A DNA stretch of 64,000 nucleotides, taken from assembly GCA_963725075.1 (NCBI GenBank), contig CAVRXA010000004.1:3578-67577 (forward strand), in the 5' to 3' direction. Origin of the DNA: an uncultured Acidobacteriota bacterium (GTDB lineage Bacteria; Actinomycetota; Acidimicrobiia; Spongiisociales; ZC4RG35). Positions 1,873-11,409 of this stretch are shown piece after piece. Below the pieces are notes generated by a model. The model had not been told where the DNA came from. It saw only the letters and a program-made list of their open reading frames with translations, and did no database searches. The number at the start of each line of letters is the position of its first letter. Positions within the stretch are counted from its first letter, which is position 1. The translations under genes and the position numbers were made by a program.

Positions 1873-2235
1873 GCAGAGGACTTTCTCCTGAACCTCCTCG
1901 TACTGGTGCAGCGCCACCAGGAAGGCGAGGAAGAGCACCAGCGACACCAGCAGGTAGGTGATCGGGATGATCCTGATCTCGAACGCGTTCAGCCCTTCGA
2001 TGTCGGCCGGCTTGGGGCCACGTGGGGCGTAGACCACGAAAAGCATCGAGGTGATCGTCAACCAGCCGAACACCGCGGCGCCGGTCACCAGGAACCCCAG
2101 CCGCTTGCCGAGGTTGGTGTAGTTGAACAGATAGATCGAGCCGTAGAACAGCGCCACGGCGGCGATGGTGAGGATGATCCCGGTGACGAAGAGGTTGGCC
2201 GAGAACAGCGACCGGAAGAACTCACGGAAGAACAA
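1837..2235 (-). CDS. Small membrane protein (3 predicted TM helices), last gene of the bc-type operon
   Basis: TTG start at 2235 with GGAGG RBS overlapping the cyt c 3' end; three hydrophobic segments. The true stop may be TAG at 1869-1871 if one A is extra at ~1884. Confidence 0.7.
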   Translation of the reverse strand: MFFREFFRSLFSANLFVTGIILTIAAVALFYGSIYLFNYTNLGKRLGFLVTGAAVFGWLTITSMLFVVYAPRGPKPADIEGLNAFEIRIIPITYLLVSLVLFLAFLVALHQYEEVQEKVLCLEPAAVIAEDL

Positions 2236-4144
2236 CGGTGGCCTCCTTCCCGTCCATGTTCCCACCACGCAGATAGCGGGCGAGCAACTCGATGTCCTCC
2301 AGGCTCAGGCTGGCGCCAAAAGCCGGCATTCGACCTGTGCCGAACCCGTTGAGGCCGTAGGGCGTCTCGGCCTCGGAGCCCCTTATCAGGAATTGGACCA
2401 GTAGGTCCTGCGCCGGGTCCACGTTCGCGTCACCGAACTGCACAGTCGGCCGACCGTCCCACAATGCCGGCCCAAATCCTCCCGAGCCCGCCTCCTGCGT
2501 GTAGGGGACACCTGCGCTGTAACCGGCGGTGTGACATCGGGCGCAGTTGGAATTGAACAGCCCGACTGCCCGCTCTGCTTCCTCGGGCGAGGACGCCATC
2601 GCCTCTGCCACCCCGGCGAAATCGATCGAATACAGCTGGGCTTGCTGGGACTCCTCGAGGTAGGCCAGGCCGCCCAAGGCGGTCTCAGTGAGATCCGCCT
2701 GGTTCTGCTCCGTCACCGAGAGGGTGGTCGCCATCGACTCCAGGTTGCCTACCAACCTGTCGGCCGTGGCGGCGTCAGGCTCCCCGCCGACCGAGGCCGG
2801 GTTGGTCGGATCGAGTGTGACCTGGGTGACCCCGGCCGGCGTGGTGGCGGTGATGGCGGCCTCGATTTGACCGTTGATGTCGGCCTCGGCGCCGCTCGAC
2901 AACCCGTCACCGTCGGGGTCGGAGCCCTCCTCGACCGCCGTGGTCGCCTCGGCCGCCAGGTCGGCGGCCCCTTCCACTGGCTCCTCGGCAGCTGCCGCCT
3001 CGTCCAGCGCCGCCACGAGCGCGTTGGCGCCATCGAGATCCTCGATCGGGCCCGGGACCTCGATGCCGGCTGTCTCCGCTGCAGCGCGGGTCTCTTCGAG
3101 GGCGGTCAACGAAGCCGGGCTGAGCCCGACAGCTGAGTCGACTGTCCCTTCCTCCATGGCCAACTCGATGGCCTCGATGTTCGTCGTGACAACCGGGTCG
3201 GTCTGACTTGCGAGCTCCAAGGCGGCGAGGGCATCGTCGGCCAGCTCGGCGTCGGCCACCTCGGGGTCGAGGGCGATCGGCTCCATGATCTGGAATCCGG
3301 CTACTGCCTCGGCTGAGATCTCACTGAGCTCCGTCTCGGCTGCATCGGAGATGCCGTCGGCGTCGGTGTCGATGCCGGTGCCTGCTCCGTCCAACACCTC
3401 TCTCGCCCGTGTGGCCATTGGAATCACCAGTGCGGCATCTGCGGGTGCCGACTCGATCTGAGCCACCACCTGACTCTGCTCGACAATGGCGGCCTCGACC
3501 GTTGCGTCGGCGGTGGCGAGCCTGTCTAGCGCAGTGTTGATCCCGGGCTCCACGTCGGCAAGGTTCTCGTCCTGCGTCACCTGAATGGTTGCCAGGTAAT
3601 TGACCACGTCTTCCACTTGCTGGTCGTTGAGCGGTCCACCGCCGGGGATGCCCCATGCCGGCATGGGAGTGTTGCCGCGGCCGTACGTGACCCAGAAGTT
3701 GACCTCGTCCTCGGCGTATCTGAAGAAGACGTCGTTGAGCGACGGAGCCGCCCACTCGACTGCGATTCCCGAGCGCTTCTCGACGTAAGGGGCGACGCCA
3801 CCCGACCCCTCCGGGCCATGACAGTTGAAACAGCCGAACTCCTCGACGAGGTGCTCGCCCCGGTCGATCGAGCCCTCGGCGAACTCCACGACGAAGCCCT
3901 CCTGTCGCTGCTGTTCGGTGAGGAAGTAGAGCGGGAGCGAAATGGCGAGGAACGCAGAGAAGGCAATCGCCGCCTTCTGCCCGCCCTCGAGCCGGCGGGT
4001 CTCGATCTTCTCGTCGTCGATACCAGGCCGAAGATTGGGAGCGACCTCCTCGCCACCCCGGTTGCGAATCGCCGAGACGAAGAGCATGCCCAGCCAGGCG
4101 ATCCCTGCGACCAGGGCGATGACCGTGATGATGTTGGCGGTCAT
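2222..4144 (-). CDS. Membrane-anchored diheme c-type cytochrome with long acidic inter-heme insert
   Basis: Two CxxCH motifs (CFNCH, CARCH), each followed by an MP(A)WG/MPAFG axial-Met motif; two N-terminal hydrophobic helices. Confidence 0.9.
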   Translation of the reverse strand: MTANIITVIALVAGIAWLGMLFVSAIRNRGGEEVAPNLRPGIDDEKIETRRLEGGQKAAIAFSAFLAISLPLYFLTEQQRQEGFVVEFAEGSIDRGEHLVEEFGCFNCHGPEGSGGVAPYVEKRSGIAVEWAAPSLNDVFFRYAEDEVNFWVTYGRGNTPMPAWGIPGGGPLNDQQVEDVVNYLATIQVTQDENLADVEPGINTALDRLATADATVEAAIVEQSQVVAQIESAPADAALVIPMATRAREVLDGAGTGIDTDADGISDAAETELSEISAEAVAGFQIMEPIALDPEVADAELADDALAALELASQTDPVVTTNIEAIELAMEEGTVDSAVGLSPASLTALEETRAAAETAGIEVPGPIEDLDGANALVAALDEAAAAEEPVEGAADLAAEATTAVEEGSDPDGDGLSSGAEADINGQIEAAITATTPAGVTQVTLDPTNPASVGGEPDAATADRLVGNLESMATTLSVTEQNQADLTETALGGLAYLEESQQAQLYSIDFAGVAEAMASSPEEAERAVGLFNSNCARCHTAGYSAGVPYTQEAGSGGFGPALWDGRPTVQFGDANVDPAQDLLVQFLIRGSEAETPYGLNGFGTGRMPAFGASLSLEDIELLARYLRGGNMDGKEATVVLP

Positions 4145-5019
4145 GCCCCGGCCACGGCGCTGATGCAGCTAGGTCCTTGCGGGTACTGGACGAGCAACAC
4201 CGGCGCCCGGGGCGTCTGGATGATCGTGCCGGTGCGAATGATGAGGTTGCCGCCCTGGTTCTCCACCACGAACCGGTCCAGGTTGCGCGGGGCGGGACCG
4301 CCGAAATATTGGCCGATGGCGTTGTACCTCGACCCGTGACACGGACATTCGAATCCCTGCGATGGGGCGCACCACGGCACCCGACACCCGAGGTGGACAC
4401 ATCGCATGTAGAGGGCCATCAGACCGTCGGTCTCCACGCCCTGGCCCTCGAACTGGTCGGAAAGCTCCTCGGGAGCAGGGACCAGGTAGGCCCGGGCCTC
4501 GGGAATGAACAGAGGGAGCACGGCGCCATCGGGGGTGAATACCTGAGTGCGCAGGTCGGAGATGGGGCCGGCGTCGATATCGGCGCCGAAGCCACCCGTC
4601 AGCTTGGGCCAGAAGAAGGCGAGGTAGTAGAGACCTTGGGCGGCGAGAAACGTCCCGAAGGTCGCAGCGATTGCCCGGTTGAAGAACTGACGCCGGCTGA
4701 CCCCGCCTTCCTCCGGAGACACCTCGACGATGCGCTGGGTCTCCAGGATCTCGACGACCGCATCCTCCTCGACCTCAACCGGTTCGGGCTCGACCTCGGG
4801 GGCCTCTTCCTCTACAGGCTCAGCTGCCTCCTCGACACGGGGCGGGATCAGAACGGCGGTCGACGACCGGTCGGCGGCCCGGGTCTCCGACGAGACCCCG
4901 GCCAGCGGATCGGCTTTCTCGACGGATTGGGAGCGGCGGTAGGCGACGGCAAATGCCCCGGCCGCCCCGAGGATCGCCACCACGGCGACCGCAATGAGGG
5001 CGGCGTTGGTCAGGGTCAT
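4141..5019 (-). CDS. petC: Rieske [2Fe-2S] subunit of the Rieske/cytochrome b complex
   Basis: CVHLGC and CPCHGS boxes; Tat-like SRRQFF before the TM helix. Confidence 0.92.
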   Translation of the reverse strand: MTLTNAALIAVAVVAILGAAGAFAVAYRRSQSVEKADPLAGVSSETRAADRSSTAVLIPPRVEEAAEPVEEEAPEVEPEPVEVEEDAVVEILETQRIVEVSPEEGGVSRRQFFNRAIAATFGTFLAAQGLYYLAFFWPKLTGGFGADIDAGPISDLRTQVFTPDGAVLPLFIPEARAYLVPAPEELSDQFEGQGVETDGLMALYMRCVHLGCRVPWCAPSQGFECPCHGSRYNAIGQYFGGPAPRNLDRFVVENQGGNLIIRTGTIIQTPRAPVLLVQYPQGPSCISAVAGA

Positions 5020-6074
5020 TCGAATTGCACCCAGTCCTTCAGGTCGTCGAAGTAGACACCGTCCTTCCAGGGATAGGAGAAGTTGAAGCCGAGGCCCCGG
5101 AAGAGGACGCCAAAGATCGTGAGTGTGGCGGCCCCCGCCAGGAACACCGAGTAGAGGGCGATGGCGAACTTGCGGTCACTGGGCCGCGTGGAGGGGTTCT
5201 TGTCGACGTAGGGGATCAACCAGAAGCCAATGAACCCGGTGATGGTCGGAATGGTCACCCCCGCAATCTGGGGATCGAAGTAGGAGAGCAGCTCCTGGAG
5301 GCCGAGGAAGTACCACGGCGCCTTCGACGGGTTGGGAGTGGCGTTGAAGTTGGCCGGGTCGAGCAGCGGGGAGTGAATGACCACAGACATGATCACTACG
5401 AGACCGGTGATCGCCAGCAGGGCACCGAACTCCATGAGCATCAGGTGGGGCCACGTGTTGACCTTGTCCGTTGGCTCGGCCTTGACCGTCTGGATGGCCC
5501 TGGCCTTGACCACGGTGAGCAGACGCTGCGTCCGCACGCCCTCGGGCGTGCCCTTCGGTGGCACCGTGGGACGGGTGCTCACCACAGCGGCCACCTTGCC
5601 GTTCCCGGCGCCGTTCCCGGACCCCGCGCCGTCGGTGGCGCCATCGCCCTCAGGGGCTGGTCGATCCTCCACTGCTGTCGCCACTGCGGCGGCGGCTGGT
5701 TCGACTGCTTCTACCTCCTCCTCCGATGGCGGCGCTTCGGTGGGTGGGGCGGGAGGCACATCAGCCTCGGTGTCGGCCACGATCACCGGCTCGGTCTCGG
5801 CTGCCGGCTCGACCGGCGCCTCTTCGGCCGGGGCGGGCTCATCATCGACCGACTCGACAGCCTCCTCGATCTCGGCGGAACGCTCTGCGGACTCCTCCAT
5901 CTCAGCAGCGACACTCTCCTCGGACTGGGCCGCTGGCGCGGGCTCGGCCGACGGCGGTGGGATGGGCGGAGCCTCACCCTTCATCTCGGCCAGCACCTGT
6001 TCGACGGGAAGGCCCAATGCCTTGGCCTTGGCCTCCGCCGACCTCCTGAGGAGACTCTCTGGAATTTCTGTCAT
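5016..6074 (-). CDS. petD: Cytochrome b subunit IV (PetD-like C-terminal half) with acidic N-terminal extension
   Basis: KVNTWPHL, NPSKAPWYFLGLQELL (PEWY-equivalent Qo motif), IPYVD; ATG at 6074 with GGAG RBS. Confidence 0.88.
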   Translation of the reverse strand: MTEIPESLLRRSAEAKAKALGLPVEQVLAEMKGEAPPIPPPSAEPAPAAQSEESVAAEMEESAERSAEIEEAVESVDDEPAPAEEAPVEPAAETEPVIVADTEADVPPAPPTEAPPSEEEVEAVEPAAAAVATAVEDRPAPEGDGATDGAGSGNGAGNGKVAAVVSTRPTVPPKGTPEGVRTQRLLTVVKARAIQTVKAEPTDKVNTWPHLMLMEFGALLAITGLVVIMSVVIHSPLLDPANFNATPNPSKAPWYFLGLQELLSYFDPQIAGVTIPTITGFIGFWLIPYVDKNPSTRPSDRKFAIALYSVFLAGAATLTIFGVLFRGLGFNFSYPWKDGVYFDDLKDWVQFE

Positions 6075-6084
6075 GACGACTCCT

Positions 6085-6861
6085 TTAGAGGGGCCCGGAG
6101 ATGCCGCCGTCCTTGCGCACTCGCCAGAAATGCACGGCAAGGAAGATCACGAGGATGAACGGGAACGCCAGGACATGCAGGACGTAGAAGCGGAGAAGGG
6201 TGGCGCCGGACACCTCGACACCGGCCAGTAGGGCGAATTTCACCTCATTGCCCACCACGGGAACGAAGCCGGCCATGTTGGTGCCCACCGTGACCGCCCA
6301 CAGCGCCAGTTGGTCCCAAGGGAGGAGGTAGCCGGAGAAGGAGAGCAGCAGGGTGAGGAAGAGGAGCACCACGCCGACGACCCAGTTGAACTCGCGCGGC
6401 GGCTTGTAGGCGCCGTGATAGAAGACCCGGCTCATGTGGAGGAACACCGAGAGGACCATGAGATGGGCCCCCCACCGATGCATGTTCCGCACCAGCGAGC
6501 CGAACGCCACATTGGTCGACAGAGCCTCGATGTCGGCATAGGCGGTCTCGGCCGAGGGCGTGTAATAGAACATGAGGAAGATCCCGGTGATGGTGAGGAG
6601 GATGAAGAGAAAGAAGCTGAGACCCCCCAGGCAGAGCGTGTAGGACAGCTTGACGCCGTGCCGCTTCACCTTCACCGGATGGAGGTGATAGAGCACGTTG
6701 TTCATCACCACGTATGACCGGTTCCTCGGGCTGTCCGAGTAGCCCTTCTTGAAGGGCGAGCCAGGGCGGAGGATCGACTCGGCCACCTGGGAGCCCCAGA
6801 GCTTGTCGCTCACCTCCTTGATCTTTTCTCCGATGCCGGTCTTACCGTTGCCGTTGGCCAA
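6085..6861 (-). CDS. petB: Cytochrome b6-like N-terminal cytochrome b
   Basis: Heme His pairs MHRW...FLH and LH-x14-H; LCLGG (heme ci Cys); GYLLPWDQ. Confidence 0.93.
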
Positions 6862-6869
6862 GCCGCCTC

Positions 6870-7319
6870 CTACCAGCGCATCCCGTAGGCATATCCATTT
6901 TTGAAGTCACGCTGCCCGGTGTCGAAATCCCAGGGGCGGCGGTCGAGACCCAGCTCCGCGGCCTGCTCGGCGAGCGACCCCTCGAACTTGCCCAGTGTGA
7001 TCACATTCGTTGGGCAGCGGTCGACACAGAGGGCGCATCGCGTGCATTCGTCCTCGTCGACCACGAAGAACCCGAGGTTCTGCGGGTCCTCACCGGGGTG
7101 GTCGACGTTGACACCCTCGGTGATGGCGTCCAACGAGAGATAGTGGATGCATTTCCAGGGGCAGATGTCGACACAGCCCTCGCAGAGGATGCACTCCGAC
7201 TGGTCGATGTGGAGGAACTGCTTCGGCCGCAGCTTGTCGGTGAAGTAGTCGCCCTCGACGACAGCGAGCTGATAATCGTCGCGGTACGGGGGAGTCTCGT
7301 CGACGACACCCTTGGGCAT
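6870..7319 (-). CDS. 2x[4Fe-4S] dicluster ferredoxin-like protein
   Basis: [12 protein letters not shown] and [12 protein letters not shown]. Confidence 0.92.
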
Positions 7320-7924
7320 CAGCCCTCACCCCTGACCAGCGGCCGCCCGTAGGGGGAGCGGGCCGGCGCCTTGTCGGCCGATGGAGGCGGACCCTTTGTC
7401 ATCTTCTGCAGCTGCAAGGCAAACACGGCCGCCACCCCAAGCATCACCAGGTGATACCCCATCGAGATCGAGTCCTTGATGGCAGCCCAACTGAGCTGTA
7501 CGTCGTTGCCCAACACCAGGACCGGCGGGATGGTGACGGCCACCCGTTGTGAGGACCAGTCGAGATCGGTCTGGGCGAAGTTGAGCCATTCCGAGGGAAC
7601 CATCCCGAAGATGATGACGAGCTCGATCCAGGTCACGAAGGAAGCGAAGAGGGCGCGGGCCCAGGTCATTCTCTGGTTCAGCACCCAGACGAACAGTGCC
7701 CCGACCACGAGCATCTGGGAGGCGCCGAACACCACCAGATAGCCGACACCTTTCAGCAAGTGGTTGCTCGGTATCCAATCGAAGATGCCCGCGTCCTGCT
7801 CGGGCGGGAGGCTCGTGTAGTGGATCCAGATCACCGCCACCACGAGACCGACGAAGCCCAGACCGAGCAGTCCCCATCCGATGGTCTTGCGTCTGCTGTC
7901 GCTCAGTTCTGCGAGGCGATACAT
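7319..7924 (-). CDS. Hypothetical membrane protein (4 TM), first gene of the bc-type operon
   Basis: Four hydrophobic helices; stop overlaps the ferredoxin start; high-GC coding pattern. Confidence 0.75.
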   Translation of the reverse strand: MYRLAELSDSRRKTIGWGLLGLGFVGLVVAVIWIHYTSLPPEQDAGIFDWIPSNHLLKGVGYLVVFGASQMLVVGALFVWVLNQRMTWARALFASFVTWIELVIIFGMVPSEWLNFAQTDLDWSSQRVAVTIPPVLVLGNDVQLSWAAIKDSISMGYHLVMLGVAAVFALQLQKMTKGPPPSADKAPARSPYGRPLVRGEG

Positions 7925-7943
7925 CTCTCGTCTTCGGGCACGG

Positions 7944-7961
7944 TTGTATACCTGTTCACGT
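7944..7961. promoter_or_regulatory. Putative Rex operator upstream of the bc-type operon
   Basis: TTGTATA-cctg-TTCACGT versus TTGTGAA-N4-TTCACAA (10/14), 20 nt upstream of the ATG at 7924. Confidence 0.45.
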
Positions 7962-7996
7962 CGTTTCTACCACAACCCGGGGCTCGTAAGAGAACC

Positions 7997-8051
7997 AGCG
8001 AACCCAGGGTTCTGGACTTCGGTGAGCGGTGCCTGCAACCCTGGGTTCGCT
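7997..8051. repeat. Perfect 15-bp inverted repeat with 25-nt spacer in the divergent promoter region
   Basis: AGCGAACCCAGGGTT (7997-8011) / AACCCTGGGTTCGCT (8037-8051). Confidence 0.85.
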
Positions 8052-8055
8052 AGTT

Positions 8056-9543
8056 ATGCTCCCGCCGTCCCGTTCCGCGACGAGGGAACCCTTGGCCGCA
8101 ACCCAAACTGCAGACATCAGGGCCCTCCTCGGGGCCGGAGATGAGGACCGCGTCGCCGTCGCCCACTTCCTGGTAGGGGCCCTCTTCCTGGTGCTGGCCG
8201 GTGTCTTCCAACTCCTCGCCCTCTTCTCGTTGCGGTTCGCCGGGCTCTCCCCGATCAGCTACGGCCGGGCCGAGTCGTTGGCCAACATCACCGTCATGCT
8301 CGGCTTTCTCGTGCTGACGCTTGCCGGTGGCGTCTATTACGTCCTGCCCCGGCTCACAGGCGCGCGACTCTGGCGAAAGGAGCTGGCCTACCTCGGGCTG
8401 CTCGGCGTCTCGGGTCTCGTGGTGCTCGACCTTCTGGCCGTGGTCTTCGGTCTCGGTGAGGGTCGACAGCCGTTTGGCCTGCCCTGGTGGCTCCACCTCC
8501 CGATGCTGGCGGTGCTCACCATTCCGTTCGCCGTCACGATGATGACCATCCGGCGCCGGGAGGAGAAGCGGAGTTTCGTCACCCTTTGGTTCGTCATGGG
8601 CGGCGTGGCCTGGCTGCCATTGCTGTACTTCGTCTACACGGCGGGCAGCCTGCCCTTCGTGGACTCGTTGGGTGCGGCGTACTCCGACGTCTTCTTCTCG
8701 GCCGGATTCGTCACCCTCTGGGTGTTCACCGTGGGCAGTGGGCTCTTCTACTACACCCTGGTCAAAGGGCTCGACATCCCCCTCGCCTCCCGCCAGCTGG
8801 CTTCAGTCGGCTTCTGGTCACTCGGCTTCGCCGCCGCATGGTGGGGGTCGGCGCAGCTCGTCTTTGGCCCCGGGCCGGGTTGGATCGACGGGGTGTCGGC
8901 TGCCCTGGGCCTGGCCTTCCCCATCGGCGCCCTCGCCAATGCCGCCAATGCCTCGCTGACCCTCCAGGGGCATTGGGAGGAGTTGAGGGACAAGCCGGGT
9001 GTTGTCTCGGGCGTCGTCGGTCTCTATCTGGGGGTGGCCGTGGCCATCCTGGCCAGTTTCGCCGCCTTCCCCTCCGTCGGATCGGTGACCGCACTCACCG
9101 CCTACTGGGAAGCGATCGAATACGTGGCTCTGTACGGCGTCGGCGTGCTGCTCGCCGCCAGCGTCGTCTTCGAGGCATTGCCCAGGTTGGCTGGCCGCGA
9201 GCCGGCCACATTGGATCGTCCGCGGTCCTTCAATCGGTGGACCGTCGTCGGGGTGGGCGGTGTCGGGGTGAGCATGATCGCGGCCGGGTTGGTCAGCGGT
9301 TACTCGTGGGTCGCGGGGTCGAACAGCGCCGCCTACGTCAACGCGGGGGAGGGCTGGGCCGCCGGGGCGGGGGCAGCCGACGTCCTGATGCTCGTCGCCG
9401 TTGGCTTCGGCATCGTGGCCTTCCTCGGACAACTTGCGTACGCCGCCACCGTGATCGGGACGGTCACGAGCGGCAAGGCCGTCCCCCAGGAGGTTCTGGT
9501 CTACGGCCCCGACCCTGATAGCGACGAGGACGCCGATGAGTGA
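8056..9543 (+). CDS. cbb3-type oxidase subunit I (CcoN)-like polytopic membrane protein lacking the canonical His ligands
   Basis: ~12 TM helices with CcoN-like landmarks ISYGR, YYVLPRLTG, LWF, FYYTLVK, GFWS..W.G, VFEALPRL; precedes a CcoO-like gene. Confidence 0.75.
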   Translation: MLPPSRSATREPLAATQTADIRALLGAGDEDRVAVAHFLVGALFLVLAGVFQLLALFSLRFAGLSPISYGRAESLANITVMLGFLVLTLAGGVYYVLPRLTGARLWRKELAYLGLLGVSGLVVLDLLAVVFGLGEGRQPFGLPWWLHLPMLAVLTIPFAVTMMTIRRREEKRSFVTLWFVMGGVAWLPLLYFVYTAGSLPFVDSLGAAYSDVFFSAGFVTLWVFTVGSGLFYYTLVKGLDIPLASRQLASVGFWSLGFAAAWWGSAQLVFGPGPGWIDGVSAALGLAFPIGALANAANASLTLQGHWEELRDKPGVVSGVVGLYLGVAVAILASFAAFPSVGSVTALTAYWEAIEYVALYGVGVLLAASVVFEALPRLAGREPATLDRPRSFNRWTVVGVGGVGVSMIAAGLVSGYSWVAGSNSAAYVNAGEGWAAGAGAADVLMLVAVGFGIVAFLGQLAYAATVIGTVTSGKAVPQEVLVYGPDPDSDEDADE

Positions 9544-10363
9544 GCTGAGTGCTGCCGCCGCTGCCGCGCTCGGCATCCCCGAAGCCATCGTGCAGCGCTC
9601 AGCCGCGGCCCGGGCTGAAGAAACCGGCATGACCGTGGACGAGGTGTTGGCCGCCTGGGCCGGTGGAGGAGACATCCCGCCACCGGCGGCACCTGCTCCC
9701 GTCGAGCCAGATGCGGCAGAGGAGCCGACCGCGCCTGCCGATGAGCCGGCGCCGGCGCCTGCGTCTTCGGCACCGACCCCTGTCATCGAGGTTCCTTCCG
9801 CCCCCGTCGTCGGAGCGACGGCTGCTCCTGGCAAGCCACCGGTCCTGGTCGGAGAGGCCGACAACCCGATCGCCGTCTTGGTCGGTGCCGTGGGTCTGTT
9901 CGTCGCCCTGTTTCTGGTTGGTGTCGTCGGCCCCGCGTTGCCTACCGAGAACCCCGGGGCGCGGACCAGTGACCTGCCCTACACCGAGACGGCCCTGCAC
10001 GGGCAGGAGATCTACCAGTCGGTCGGTTGTGCGTCCTGTCATACCCAGATGGTGCGTCCCGTGGTGGCGGATGTCGGTCTCGGGGCTGTGTCTCTGAACG
10101 ACACCAATCAGGTGTTGGGGACACGCCGTTTCGGCCCCGACCTGTCCAATGTCGGGGCGCGAGTCTCCGCCAGCCAGATCGAGGCGATCATCCTCGGGCT
10201 CGACGACCATCCCTCCCTTTCCCTTTCATCAGAAGATCTCGATGCCCTGGTGGCGTATCTGGTCGAGTCGGCCACGCTCGAGGAAGCCCCACCTGGTGAG
10301 CCGACCGAAGAGGAGCCCGCCCCAGAAGGTGACGTGCCCACCGAGGAGACCGCCGCGTCATGA
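9536..10363 (+). CDS. ccoO: cbb3-type subunit II (CcoO)-like monoheme cytochrome c
   Basis: GCASCHTQMVRP and GTRRFGPDL resemble the CcoO motifs GCxxCHSQxIRP and GSKRTGPDL; one TM helix. Confidence 0.8.
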   Translation: MSELSAAAAAALGIPEAIVQRSAAARAEETGMTVDEVLAAWAGGGDIPPPAAPAPVEPDAAEEPTAPADEPAPAPASSAPTPVIEVPSAPVVGATAAPGKPPVLVGEADNPIAVLVGAVGLFVALFLVGVVGPALPTENPGARTSDLPYTETALHGQEIYQSVGCASCHTQMVRPVVADVGLGAVSLNDTNQVLGTRRFGPDLSNVGARVSASQIEAIILGLDDHPSLSLSSEDLDALVAYLVESATLEEAPPGEPTEEEPAPEGDVPTEETAAS

Positions 10364-11409
10364 GCGATCTGAGCGCCGCCGCAGCCGCCCTCGGCATCCC
10401 GGAAGCCATCGTCCAGCGCTCGGCTGCCGCCCGTGCCGCCGAGACAGGGATGACGGTCGACGAGGTGCTGGCAGCCTGGGCCGGGGGCGGGTCCGTGGCC
10501 GGGTCGCCGGCAGCACCCTCGGAGGAGGCGCCGGCCGCTTCGGCCGAGGCACCGGCAGCAACCGAGGAAGAAGCTCCCCCCTCCCCGCCTGCGGCGGTAC
10601 TCCCCCCTTCGGGGGGAGAAATGGCCGAGCCTGTGGCCGCGGTGCCCTCCGGCCCGGTGACCCGATCTCCTGTCCCAGCCGAGGTGACCGCCGCCGAGGC
10701 TGCCGGGCTGCCCGAGGTGATCACCGTCCCCACGGCGGGCATCAGGGAGCGGACCAATCTCGCCATCCCACGCTGGTTGGCCGCGGTGATGCTGATCATC
10801 CCCGCCTTCGCCCTCTTCGCTCTGGGCGGTTCCGCCACCGGTGAGTGCGGTGAGAACACCGAGCTAGCCACCAACGTCATAACCGGCCAGGTGGTCAACT
10901 GTGACGGGACCGAGTTCACCGGCTCGGGTGCCGGTGGCGGGGGCGGCGACTTCATCGCCATGGGAGAGGACGTCTATCTCAACGTGGCCAGCTGCGACGG
11001 ATGTCATGGCGCCCAGGGCCAAGGCGGGGTCGGTCCGGGCTTCTCGGGGGTAGTCACCACTTTCGGTTCCTGCACCGATCACATCGAGTGGGTCACGCTC
11101 GGTTCGGTCGGATTCCAGGGCGAAGGCCGGTCGACATACGGCGACACCGACAAACCGATCGCTGGAGGTATGCCGGCATTCGGCACGACTCTCACCGAGG
11201 AGCAACTGGCCTCGGCGGTCGCCTTCGAGCGGGTCCGCTTCGGTGGCGCCGATCCGACAGAGACTCTCACCGACTGCGGCCTCGCCCCGGCGGAGGGCGA
11301 GGAGGGAGAGGCTCCCGGCGAGACCACACCCGACGGCGAGCCGCCGGCGGAGGGGGAAACGACGACCACGGTGAGCGGCGCAGCGGCCGCGCTCGCACCG
11401 GCCTCATAG
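10360..11409 (+). CDS. Membrane-anchored monoheme cytochrome c (CcoP-position subunit)
   Basis: CDGCHGAQGQGGVGP, GGMPAFG axial Met, one TM helix; ATGA overlap with the upstream gene. Confidence 0.88.
   Translation: MSDLSAAAAALGIPEAIVQRSAAARAAETGMTVDEVLAAWAGGGSVAGSPAAPSEEAPAASAEAPAATEEEAPPSPPAAVLPPSGGEMAEPVAAVPSGPVTRSPVPAEVTAAEAAGLPEVITVPTAGIRERTNLAIPRWLAAVMLIIPAFALFALGGSATGECGENTELATNVITGQVVNCDGTEFTGSGAGGGGGDFIAMGEDVYLNVASCDGCHGAQGQGGVGPGFSGVVTTFGSCTDHIEWVTLGSVGFQGEGRSTYGDTDKPIAGGMPAFGTTLTEEQLASAVAFERVRFGGADPTETLTDCGLAPAEGEEGEAPGETTPDGEPPAEGETTTTVSGAAAALAPAS
10575..10621 (+). repeat. 47-bp palindromic (REP-like) element, copy 1, in-frame within the cytochrome c gene
   Basis: 43/47 identical to 23014-23060; two hairpins CCGCC-tgc-GGCGG and CTCCCCCC-ttc-GGGGGGAG. 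Confidence 0.8.

Follow-up and report, generated by a model that had tools for sequence, protein, structure and literature searches.

The window analysed here is a stretch of 64,000 nucleotides of contig CAVRXA010000004.1 (assembly GCA_963725075.1, positions 3,578 to 67,577 of the forward strand), from an uncultured bacterium that GTDB places in the Acidimicrobiia. It carries two operons of respiratory genes that are arranged head-to-head and separated by 131 bp (7925..8055 in the map of open reading frames, ORFs). The forward operon comprises three genes. The first (8056..9543, + strand) encodes a protein of 495 amino acids with 12 transmembrane helices, a homologue of subunit I of the C-family haem-copper oxidases (HCOs) as judged from Pfam COX1, matches in the PDB and an AlphaFold2 model. 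In this protein the six metal-binding histidines of the cbb3 oxidase subunit CcoN have been replaced, and it will be hereafter referred to as dead CcoN. The second gene (9536..10363, + strand) encodes a CcoO/FixO-like, membrane-anchored monohaem cytochrome c of 275 amino acids, recognised by Pfam FixO. The third (10360..11409, + strand) encodes a second membrane-anchored monohaem cytochrome c, of 349 amino acids, which resembles one haem domain of CcoP and is also recognised by Pfam. The trio is predicted to be translationally coupled, with start/stop overlaps of 8 nucleotides between genes 1 and 2 and of 4 nucleotides (ATGA) between genes 2 and 3. The reverse operon encodes a cytochrome b6-type complex with a ferredoxin and a Rieske subunit.

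The ORF of dead CcoN starts with the ATG at 8056 and stops with the TGA at 9543, in agreement with the initial annotation, and the protein has only three His (H37, H147 and H306, also counted there) and zero Cys. It scores 69.9 bits against Pfam COX1 (PF00115; cut-off 34.8) and 90.4 bits against the ccoN equivalog TIGR00780, which is below the cut-off of 583. Its best matches among solved structures in a phmmer search are CcoN chains (9g83, 9g6b, 6xkw, 3mk7 and 8smr), with E values from 5e-12 to 1e-5. In these alignments the CcoN segment FGRLRPLH lies opposite YGRAESLA (against 9g83, 6xkw and 3mk7), WAGPHH lies opposite WWGSAQ, and TDWTIGHVH lies opposite TAYWEAIEY. The ligand columns were defined in a MAFFT alignment of the query with about 100 full-length cluster representatives from a HMMER library search. 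The six columns read HHHHHH in the canonical members, while the query has A76 (codon 8281), A216 (8701), A266 and Q267 (8851-8856), I354 (9115) and Y356 (9121), all on the + strand. These columns agree with the codons at which the initial annotation had placed the replacements, and no His was found at a ligand site. The position six residues before the first histidine of the HH pair, which by P. stutzeri CcoN numbering (Y251/H257) is that of the cross-link Tyr, the active-site residue of helix 7 that is joined to a CuB His, is A260 in the query (codon 8833) and is Ala, Ser or Gly in all 82 aligned sequences.

Judged from these alignments, the 495-amino-acid protein is a full-length C-family (cbb3/CcoN-type) HCO subunit I in which the ligands of haem b (two His), haem b3 (one) and CuB (three) have all been lost. 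Since all six are gone, dead CcoN cannot be a haem b/b3-CuB O2 or NO reductase; the same had been concluded at the outset, and the ligands are absent from the whole aligned family. The same reasoning covers nitric oxide reductase, as NorB requires six His in the same ligand columns as CcoN and the query has zero there.

Other positions separate the His-less group from the canonical sequences. R73 is invariant among canonical CcoN proteins, relaxed in the His-less group, and Glu in the query. Acidic residues at the helix-10 positions 352 and 355 (E352 and E355 in the query) are frequent in the His-less group only. Position 246 is His in 17 of 22 canonical sequences and is unconserved in the His-less group, where it is Arg in 28 of 66. 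In its cytoplasmic loops, dead CcoN retains the ancestral CcoN charges R99, R168, E170, K237, R377 and R381. The residues specific to the His-less clade are His37 (8164), Glu352 (9109), Glu355 (9118) and Glu479 (9490). His37 is invariant in the orthologue group and would be located at the cytoplasmic end of helix 1, with helix limits taken from the AlphaFold2 model and the topology inferred. The gained acidic residues of helix 10 flank the former haem ligands, and the C-terminus has a conserved QEVLV motif.

The AlphaFold2 model of dead CcoN, which was built on a 24-sequence alignment, consists of twelve long helices, with a mean predicted local distance difference test score (pLDDT) of 89.3 and a predicted template modelling score (pTM) of 0.90. 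When the model was compared with the PDB using Foldseek, the first seven matches were CcoN chains, with TM-scores of 0.81-0.89 and root mean square deviations of 2.7-3.0 Å at 18-20% sequence identity. These were followed by NorB of the cytochrome c-dependent nitric oxide reductase (cNOR), and then by subunit I of the ba3 and aa3 oxidases. The structural matches include two solved bc1-cbb3 supercomplexes, 6xkw and 8smr. According to the model, dead CcoN keeps the 12-helix fold of HCO subunit I and is closest to CcoN. The resemblance to CcoN, which had been proposed helix by helix, is confirmed.

More than 400 close homologues of dead CcoN were found, with 59-94% identity among the 120 listed. 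Where names are given, these are called 'cbb3-type cytochrome c oxidase subunit I' and come from metagenome-assembled genomes (MAGs) of Acidimicrobiia. Relatives were confirmed in 147 stretches when one genome per species was scanned, and all of the 80 loci listed out of these are from MAGs. With an E value of 1e-30 or less, dead CcoN occurs in 34 of the 35 genomes sampled from its own family and in several other families of the same order. The query was aligned with 81 orthologues, and at the seven sites, i.e. the six ligand sites and the Tyr site, His is absent from all 82 sequences. At four of the seven, the residue is almost without exception Ala, Ser, Gly or Thr. Q267 is conserved in 80 of the 82 sequences, E355 in 95%, and Y356 in 73, the remaining nine having Phe, Leu, Val, Ile or Thr at that position. 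Dozens of deeper clusters at 50% identity, which reach down to 25-30% identity, likewise lack the ligands. A FastTree tree of the family has an uncertain rooting and a sample biased to the query, and one or several losses of the histidines are not read from it.

The reading frame is intact in the aligned orthologues, with single in-frame stops in a few genome matches. Between the window contig (C4) and a second contig of the assembly (C5), the ratio of nonsynonymous to synonymous substitution rates (dN/dS) of dead CcoN is 0.14, from 15 nonsynonymous and 37 synonymous changes. The ratios of the two partner cytochromes are 0.08 and 0.15. Across 16 genomes (120 pairs), dead CcoN has a median dN/dS of 0.12, equal to that of the Rieske subunit (0.12), while cytochrome b6 and the ferredoxin have 0.04 and 0.02. 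The coding sequences show that dead CcoN is under purifying and not relaxed selection. The initial annotation had suggested examining whether the His loss is family-wide and whether dN/dS is below 1, and both are the case: the loss is seen in 82 of 82 sequences, and no close homologue among them keeps the histidines. The remark there that many neighbouring genes are frameshifted was not borne out, as the ORFs of all cluster genes are intact and match their orthologues over the full length. A decaying pseudogene, or an artefact of assembly or annotation, would explain the missing ligands and nothing further, and it is excluded by the dN/dS of 0.12-0.14 and by the conservation, i.e. the intact frame, the relatives in 147 stretches and a pattern kept down to 25-30% identity. 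The C5 copy was considered as a paralogue and rejected. C4 and C5 run colinearly for about 70 kb, with a nucleotide identity of 86-95% that is about 94% along most of this length. The two contigs are therefore co-binned sister strains in one assembly, and apparent second gene copies belong to a sister strain.

Both partner cytochromes keep the haem-binding CxxCH motif, as had been noted from the start. The CcoO-like protein has a cytoplasmic N-terminal tag, an Ala/Pro linker, a single transmembrane helix and the motif CASCH at 10028-10042. It scores 45.1 bits against Pfam FixO (cut-off 29.6), with profile positions 29-115 of 219 matched, and its matches to CcoO chains in the PDB have an E value of 3e-9. 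In about 75 aligned orthologues the CxxCH is invariant and there are zero invariant Met residues. Instead, His225 (10208-10210, + strand) is invariant within a G-x-D/G-H-P stretch, where CcoO has its axial Met. The fused forms, in which the shell and a FixO domain make one protein in two sister families (f2 and f3), keep the canonical W-S-T-M-P-S-Y. At the place of M-P-S-Y, the separate subunits of the query family (f1) have D-D-H-P-S-L, and a family with genomes of about 1 Mb (f12) has I-P-H-P-N-Y. The equivalence of Met and His is based on this comparison of MPSY, HPNY and HPSL with the fused and f12 forms (L095-L098); hhalign aligned the CxxCH stretch alone of the two haem domains. With His225 at the axial-Met position, the haem of the CcoO-like protein is likely His/His-ligated.

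The third gene scores 27.3 bits against Pfam Cytochrome_CBB3 and 24.2 bits against Cytochrom_C. It has one CxxCH, CDGCH at 10993-11007, the axial-Met motif GGMPAF (M271, 11170) and an N-terminal tag as in the CcoO-like protein. Conservation among the orthologues exceeds 90% for both the CxxCH and the GMP, indicating a His/Met-ligated haem. The score against TIGR00782 is 15.5 bits, below the cut-off of 180, and there is a single cytochrome c domain, so the protein is no dihaem CcoP. Two extra Cys, one in FG-x-C-x-D...WV and the other in a C-terminal CG, are more than 90% conserved and may form a disulfide in the exported domain.

The reverse operon is made of six genes, all on the - strand. The first encodes a 201-amino-acid membrane protein (7319..7924) with no Pfam or NCBIfam match, whose gene adjoins that of the ferredoxin in most loci of the class (21-98% identity) and has a dN/dS of 0.08-0.11. 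It is followed by a 2x[4Fe-4S] ferredoxin subunit (6870..7319; 149 amino acids, Pfam Fer4 families, orthologues 84-100% identical) and by a split, b6-type cytochrome b (6085..6861; Pfam Cytochrome_B 162 bits, NF040969 302 bits), whose gene is found in 289 of 301 genomes of the class. The fourth gene encodes a PetD-like subunit IV with a long cytoplasmic N-terminus (5016..6074; Pfam Cytochrom_B_C 25 bits), and the fifth the Rieske [2Fe-2S] subunit (4141..5019; Pfam Rieske, NF010001), which is syntenic in all loci. The last encodes a large membrane-anchored c-type cytochrome (2222..4144), in which one CxxCH, CFNCH, was seen. It is syntenic in all loci that are long enough, and its orthologues have Pfam cytochrome c matches. 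The 131-bp intergenic region presumably holds both promoters; no match to the sigma-70 consensus was found in 7925..8055.

The trio stands head-to-head with the b6 operon in all loci that are long enough to show both. The order of ten genes, which includes a convergent glutaredoxin-like gene, is identical in all long-enough loci from about 80 species representatives, and it is held where dead CcoN has 62%, 41-44% and 34% identity. The two operons also have an N-terminal motif in common. Subunit IV opens with the motif MTEIPESLLRRSAEAKAKALG, of the general form IPE-x-LL-R/K-R-S/A-x-x-A-K/R-A, which is often duplicated and is present in most of the 20 loci that were sampled across families (L095-L114). 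Both cytochromes of the trio have a closely related motif, G-I-P-E-A-I-V-Q-R-S-A-A-A-R-A, and it is found on the two cytochromes only in lineages with the dead shell. In the window the motif regions are 9536-9670 and 10360-10490 on the + strand and about 5980-6074 on the - strand. Since the haem domains are exported, all three tags must lie in the cytoplasm. A cytoplasmic motif common to subunits of both operons argues for their co-assembly or for a common partner. By eye, the two cytochrome tags in the window are near-identical over about 44 residues, which may reflect gene conversion.

In the 20 family-spread b6 loci, the ferredoxin, cytochrome b6, Rieske and large cytochrome genes were found in all 20 and a subunit IV match in 19. 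The dead shell is adjacent in four of them, two of which are shell::FixO fusions of 643-653 amino acids and two of which are separate forms of 468 amino acids.

In the genome (2.89 Mb, 88.7% complete), the cytochrome b6 of the cluster is the only cytochrome b detected, being the sole PF00033 match besides the C5 copy. The only canonical HCO detected is an A-type caa3 oxidase on contig C15, which is the separate intact terminal oxidase that the initial annotation had asked about. Its operon encodes CoxII fused to cytochrome c, CoxI and CoxIII, and a gene of the UbiA family for haem O synthase is nearby. No cytochrome bd was detectable in the 88.7%-complete genome, with control genomes responding. 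FixS/CcoS (PF03597) and FixH/CcoH (PF05751), the two cbb3 biogenesis proteins that the search covered, gave no match in it either, with a positive Caulobacter control. With one cytochrome b and one O2 reductase, all electrons to O2 should go from the b6 complex to caa3.

Variants of the shell were found in other lineages. A metagenomic contig (L094:5020-7104) encodes a His-less C-type shell in fusion with a cupredoxin whose type-1 copper site, H..C-x2-H-x2-M, is intact. The gene is flanked by b6/ferredoxin genes and cytochrome c maturation genes (ResA/ResB/CcsA) on one side, and by CoxII::cytochrome c and CoxI on the other. In these sequences the shell is constant while the electron-carrier domain is swapped, being a separate CcoO-like haem c, a fused FixO domain or a fused blue copper domain. 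Of 16 genomes without the C-type shell, eight (L115-L122) have a second, weak COX1 match, which in seven is located 4-5 kb from the genuine CoxI; in the eighth, this match and the genuine CoxI are on separate short contigs. These weak matches are A-family CoxI paralogues of 535-600 amino acids in which all six His are replaced, GHPEVY becoming R/Q-Q-P-Q-V/I-Y and AHHMF becoming A-W-A-Q, and most lie upstream of the caa3 CoxI gene (e.g. L116:8939-10549, - strand). The gene order in L116 is dead CoxI, CoxIII-like, a cupredoxin without obvious copper ligands, CoxII::cytochrome c, CoxI, CoxIII, CoxIV and CtaG. The A-type dead CoxI was missed by our home-made hidden Markov model of the C family and recovered via coordinates from the Pfam search. 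In the sample of 20 genomes, the C-type shell is present in four, the A-type in eight, neither in eight and both in none; given the small sample, this pattern is a lead. A 398-amino-acid membrane protein on contig C14 of the query genome (C14:82752-83948, corresponding to L004:1099-2295, + strand) has a sub-threshold COX1 match (29.9 bits, cut-off 34.8), a THVHAGTLGW motif and no relative in the PDB. It was considered as an A-type dead CoxI and rejected as unrelated.

Among known systems, the trio is most like the cbb3 oxidase CcoNOP, of which structures are available from P. stutzeri (3MK7/5DJQ), R. capsulatus (6XKW) and P. aeruginosa (8SMR). Both have the 12-helix fold of subunit I and the gene order of subunit I, FixO-type monohaem cytochrome and further cytochrome c, and dead CcoN retains the loop residues R99, R168/E170, K237 and R377/R381. 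However, dead CcoN lacks the six His and the cross-link Tyr, which leaves no place for haem b, haem b3 or CuB, and has Glu for R73. The CcoO-like subunit of the trio is shortened, with His in place of the axial Met, and the third subunit is monohaem where CcoP is dihaem; ccoS and ccoH were not found in the genome. The genuine cbb3 oxidase is known to dock on complex III in supercomplexes. The second-best structural match is to cNOR (NorBC; 3o0r_B and 4xyd_A, TM-scores of 0.74-0.86), which likewise combines an HCO subunit I with a monohaem cytochrome c; NorB has all six His, however, and dead CcoN has none.

The A-type dead CoxI occurs in the same bacterial class as dead CcoN and reflects the same kind of event, namely the replacement of all six His of an HCO subunit I whose gene is intact and lies among respiratory genes. 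It differs in having an A-type ancestor, a location beside caa3 and not beside b6, a cupredoxin apparently devoid of copper ligands as partner and no N-terminal tag. Core 1 and Core 2 of the mitochondrial bc1 complex are peptidase-like and inactive. With these and with CydA' of the archaeal cytochrome bd, dead CcoN would share a principle, namely a fold kept structurally after the loss of cofactors or catalysis, the folds themselves being unrelated. CydA' is reported in a preprint (bioRxiv 10.1101/2021.01.16.426971). Within the HCO superfamily, the dead CcoN family can likewise be classed as a clade of pseudo-subunits. No description of a His-less CcoN or of a cofactor-free HCO subunit I was found in the full-text literature searched, and to that extent the module is undescribed, as the initial annotation had suggested. 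No dedicated NCBIfam or Pfam model for the family was found.

We propose with moderate confidence that dead CcoN is a redox-dead, non-catalytic membrane scaffold that places c-type carriers between the b6 complex and the caa3 oxidase. The dead shell would retain the CcoO-docking architecture of the cbb3 oxidase and would hold the CcoO-like haem c, probably His/His-ligated, and the CcoP-like haem c, His/Met-ligated, at the outer face of the membrane. Small residues (Ala, Ser or Gly) at four of the former ligand sites, together with E352 and E355, would allow the helices to close up where the haem pockets are now empty. The complex of ferredoxin, b6, subunit IV, Rieske and large cytochrome that is encoded head-to-head with the module would be its docking site, and the module would serve as a fixed cytochrome c relay or supercomplex adaptor towards caa3. 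To our knowledge, Gram-positive-type cells have no soluble periplasmic cytochrome c. A contact of the module with the b6 complex or with caa3 is suggested by the gene order and the shared motif. Of the comparative findings, the cupredoxin-fused shell, which is encoded between b6 and caa3 genes, speaks most strongly for a scaffold that holds carriers between the two complexes. A repurposed scaffold wired to the adjacent b6 complex had been put forward in the initial annotation. Its tie to the b6 complex gains from the head-to-head synteny, which is invariant down to 34% identity, and from the N-terminal motif; the haem-c wire is kept here as part of the proposal, and the module now appears as accessory.

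Three points weigh against the scaffold. The b6 operon is found without the dead-shell module in 16 of the 20 loci, and in 12 of the 15 families sampled. As the operon often occurs without it, the module is, on this distribution, accessory and not an obligate part of the b6 complex, and is dispensable for b6 function. Secondly, the potential of a His/His-ligated haem c is normally low, and such a haem fits poorly in a relay that feeds a high-potential oxidase; the misfit would be smaller in a menaquinone-based chain. Thirdly, the A-type dead CoxI is partnered by a cupredoxin that apparently has no copper ligands, so dead oxidase shells could exist without live carriers.

Two further explanations, each of which we regard as improbable, were weighed against the scaffold. 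The shell could have a non-redox role of its own in the membrane, as a proton or ion pathway, or by regulating b6 as a sensor or gate for a gas or ligand, with the cytochromes as passengers. The ancestral loop charges R99, R168, E170, K237, R377 and R381 would fit such a role, as would the new conserved acidic residues of helix 10 and the clade-specific, invariant His37 and Glu479. However, all Acidimicrobiia forms examined have an intact haem c or blue copper domain to which the shell is coupled or fused; position 246, a His in most canonical sequences, is unconserved in the His-less group; and searches of Pfam and NCBIfam found no transport or sensor domain. Alternatively, dead CcoN could be a subunit that assembles or stabilises b6, caa3 or both and stands outside the electron path, comparable to the Core proteins of mitochondrial bc1. 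This is suggested by the sister families, in which the A-type dead CoxI is the first gene of the caa3 operon and is accompanied by genes for a CoxIII-like protein and for a cupredoxin without obvious copper ligands, and by the two types of shell never occurring together in the 20 genomes. The sample behind this mutual exclusion is small, however, and the strict conservation of the CxxCH and of the axial ligands in both cytochromes argues that electrons pass through the module.

It is considerably less probable still, and in our view hardly to be expected, that a haem or metal is bound via the non-His ligands Tyr356, Gln267 and Glu355 or via His37, which would make the protein an unusual oxidoreductase. 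In the orthologue group these residues are well conserved (Q267 in 80 and Y356 in 73 of 82, E355 in 95%, H37 invariant). Against this, Y356 is replaced in nine sequences, all candidate positions vary freely in the deeper His-less clusters, and four of the former ligand sites are Ala, Ser or Gly. Moreover, on the inferred topology H37 would be far from the level of the haems, and the CcoS/CcoH biogenesis genes were not found.

Beyond the scaffold proposal, a broader reading can be put forward tentatively, one that we think more apt to be wrong than right. The ten-gene cluster could encode an unrecognised type of respiratory supercomplex, in which a cofactor-free cbb3 shell wires a ferredoxin-bearing Rieske/b6 complex to caa3 through fixed c-haems. 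Such 'ghost oxidase' shells would have evolved at least twice in the Acidimicrobiia, from the C family beside b6 and from the A family beside caa3. They would have a general architectural role and would have been overlooked because pipelines call them working oxidases.

The naming of these proteins has consequences for the reading of metagenomes. NCBI and JGI both use the name 'cbb3-type cytochrome c oxidase subunit I' for dead CcoN proteins, and metagenome work has credited Acidimicrobiia genomes with cbb3 oxidases (e.g. PMC8357290). If the dead family underlies such calls, a high-affinity microaerobic respiration would have been wrongly inferred for abundant soil and marine Acidimicrobiia. 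A subunit I that survives the total loss of haem and copper under selection as strong as that on the Rieske subunit also shows that a function of the HCO fold is separable from catalysis. The dead shell thereby offers a natural system for studying cbb3-type docking on complex III. In evolutionary terms, it presents one shell with interchangeable carrier domains and, in the A-type dead CoxI of sister families, a parallel case.

Two minor observations concern the records and the surroundings of the cluster. Many MFD MAGs that are titled 'uncultured Acidobacteriota bacterium' hold an Acidimicrobiia-type cluster at 63-96% identity (L009-L014, L029, L033, L034, L050, L078 and L081), and the taxon labels of these records look wrong. 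Downstream of the trio, the segment 11431-13696 of the window has genes for a glutaredoxin-like protein, a SAM-hydrolase (SAM_HAT; SAM, S-adenosylmethionine) and a Clp1-type P-loop protein. This gene order persists to 34% identity of dead CcoN (L005 and L092), and the synteny reaches well past the respiratory genes.

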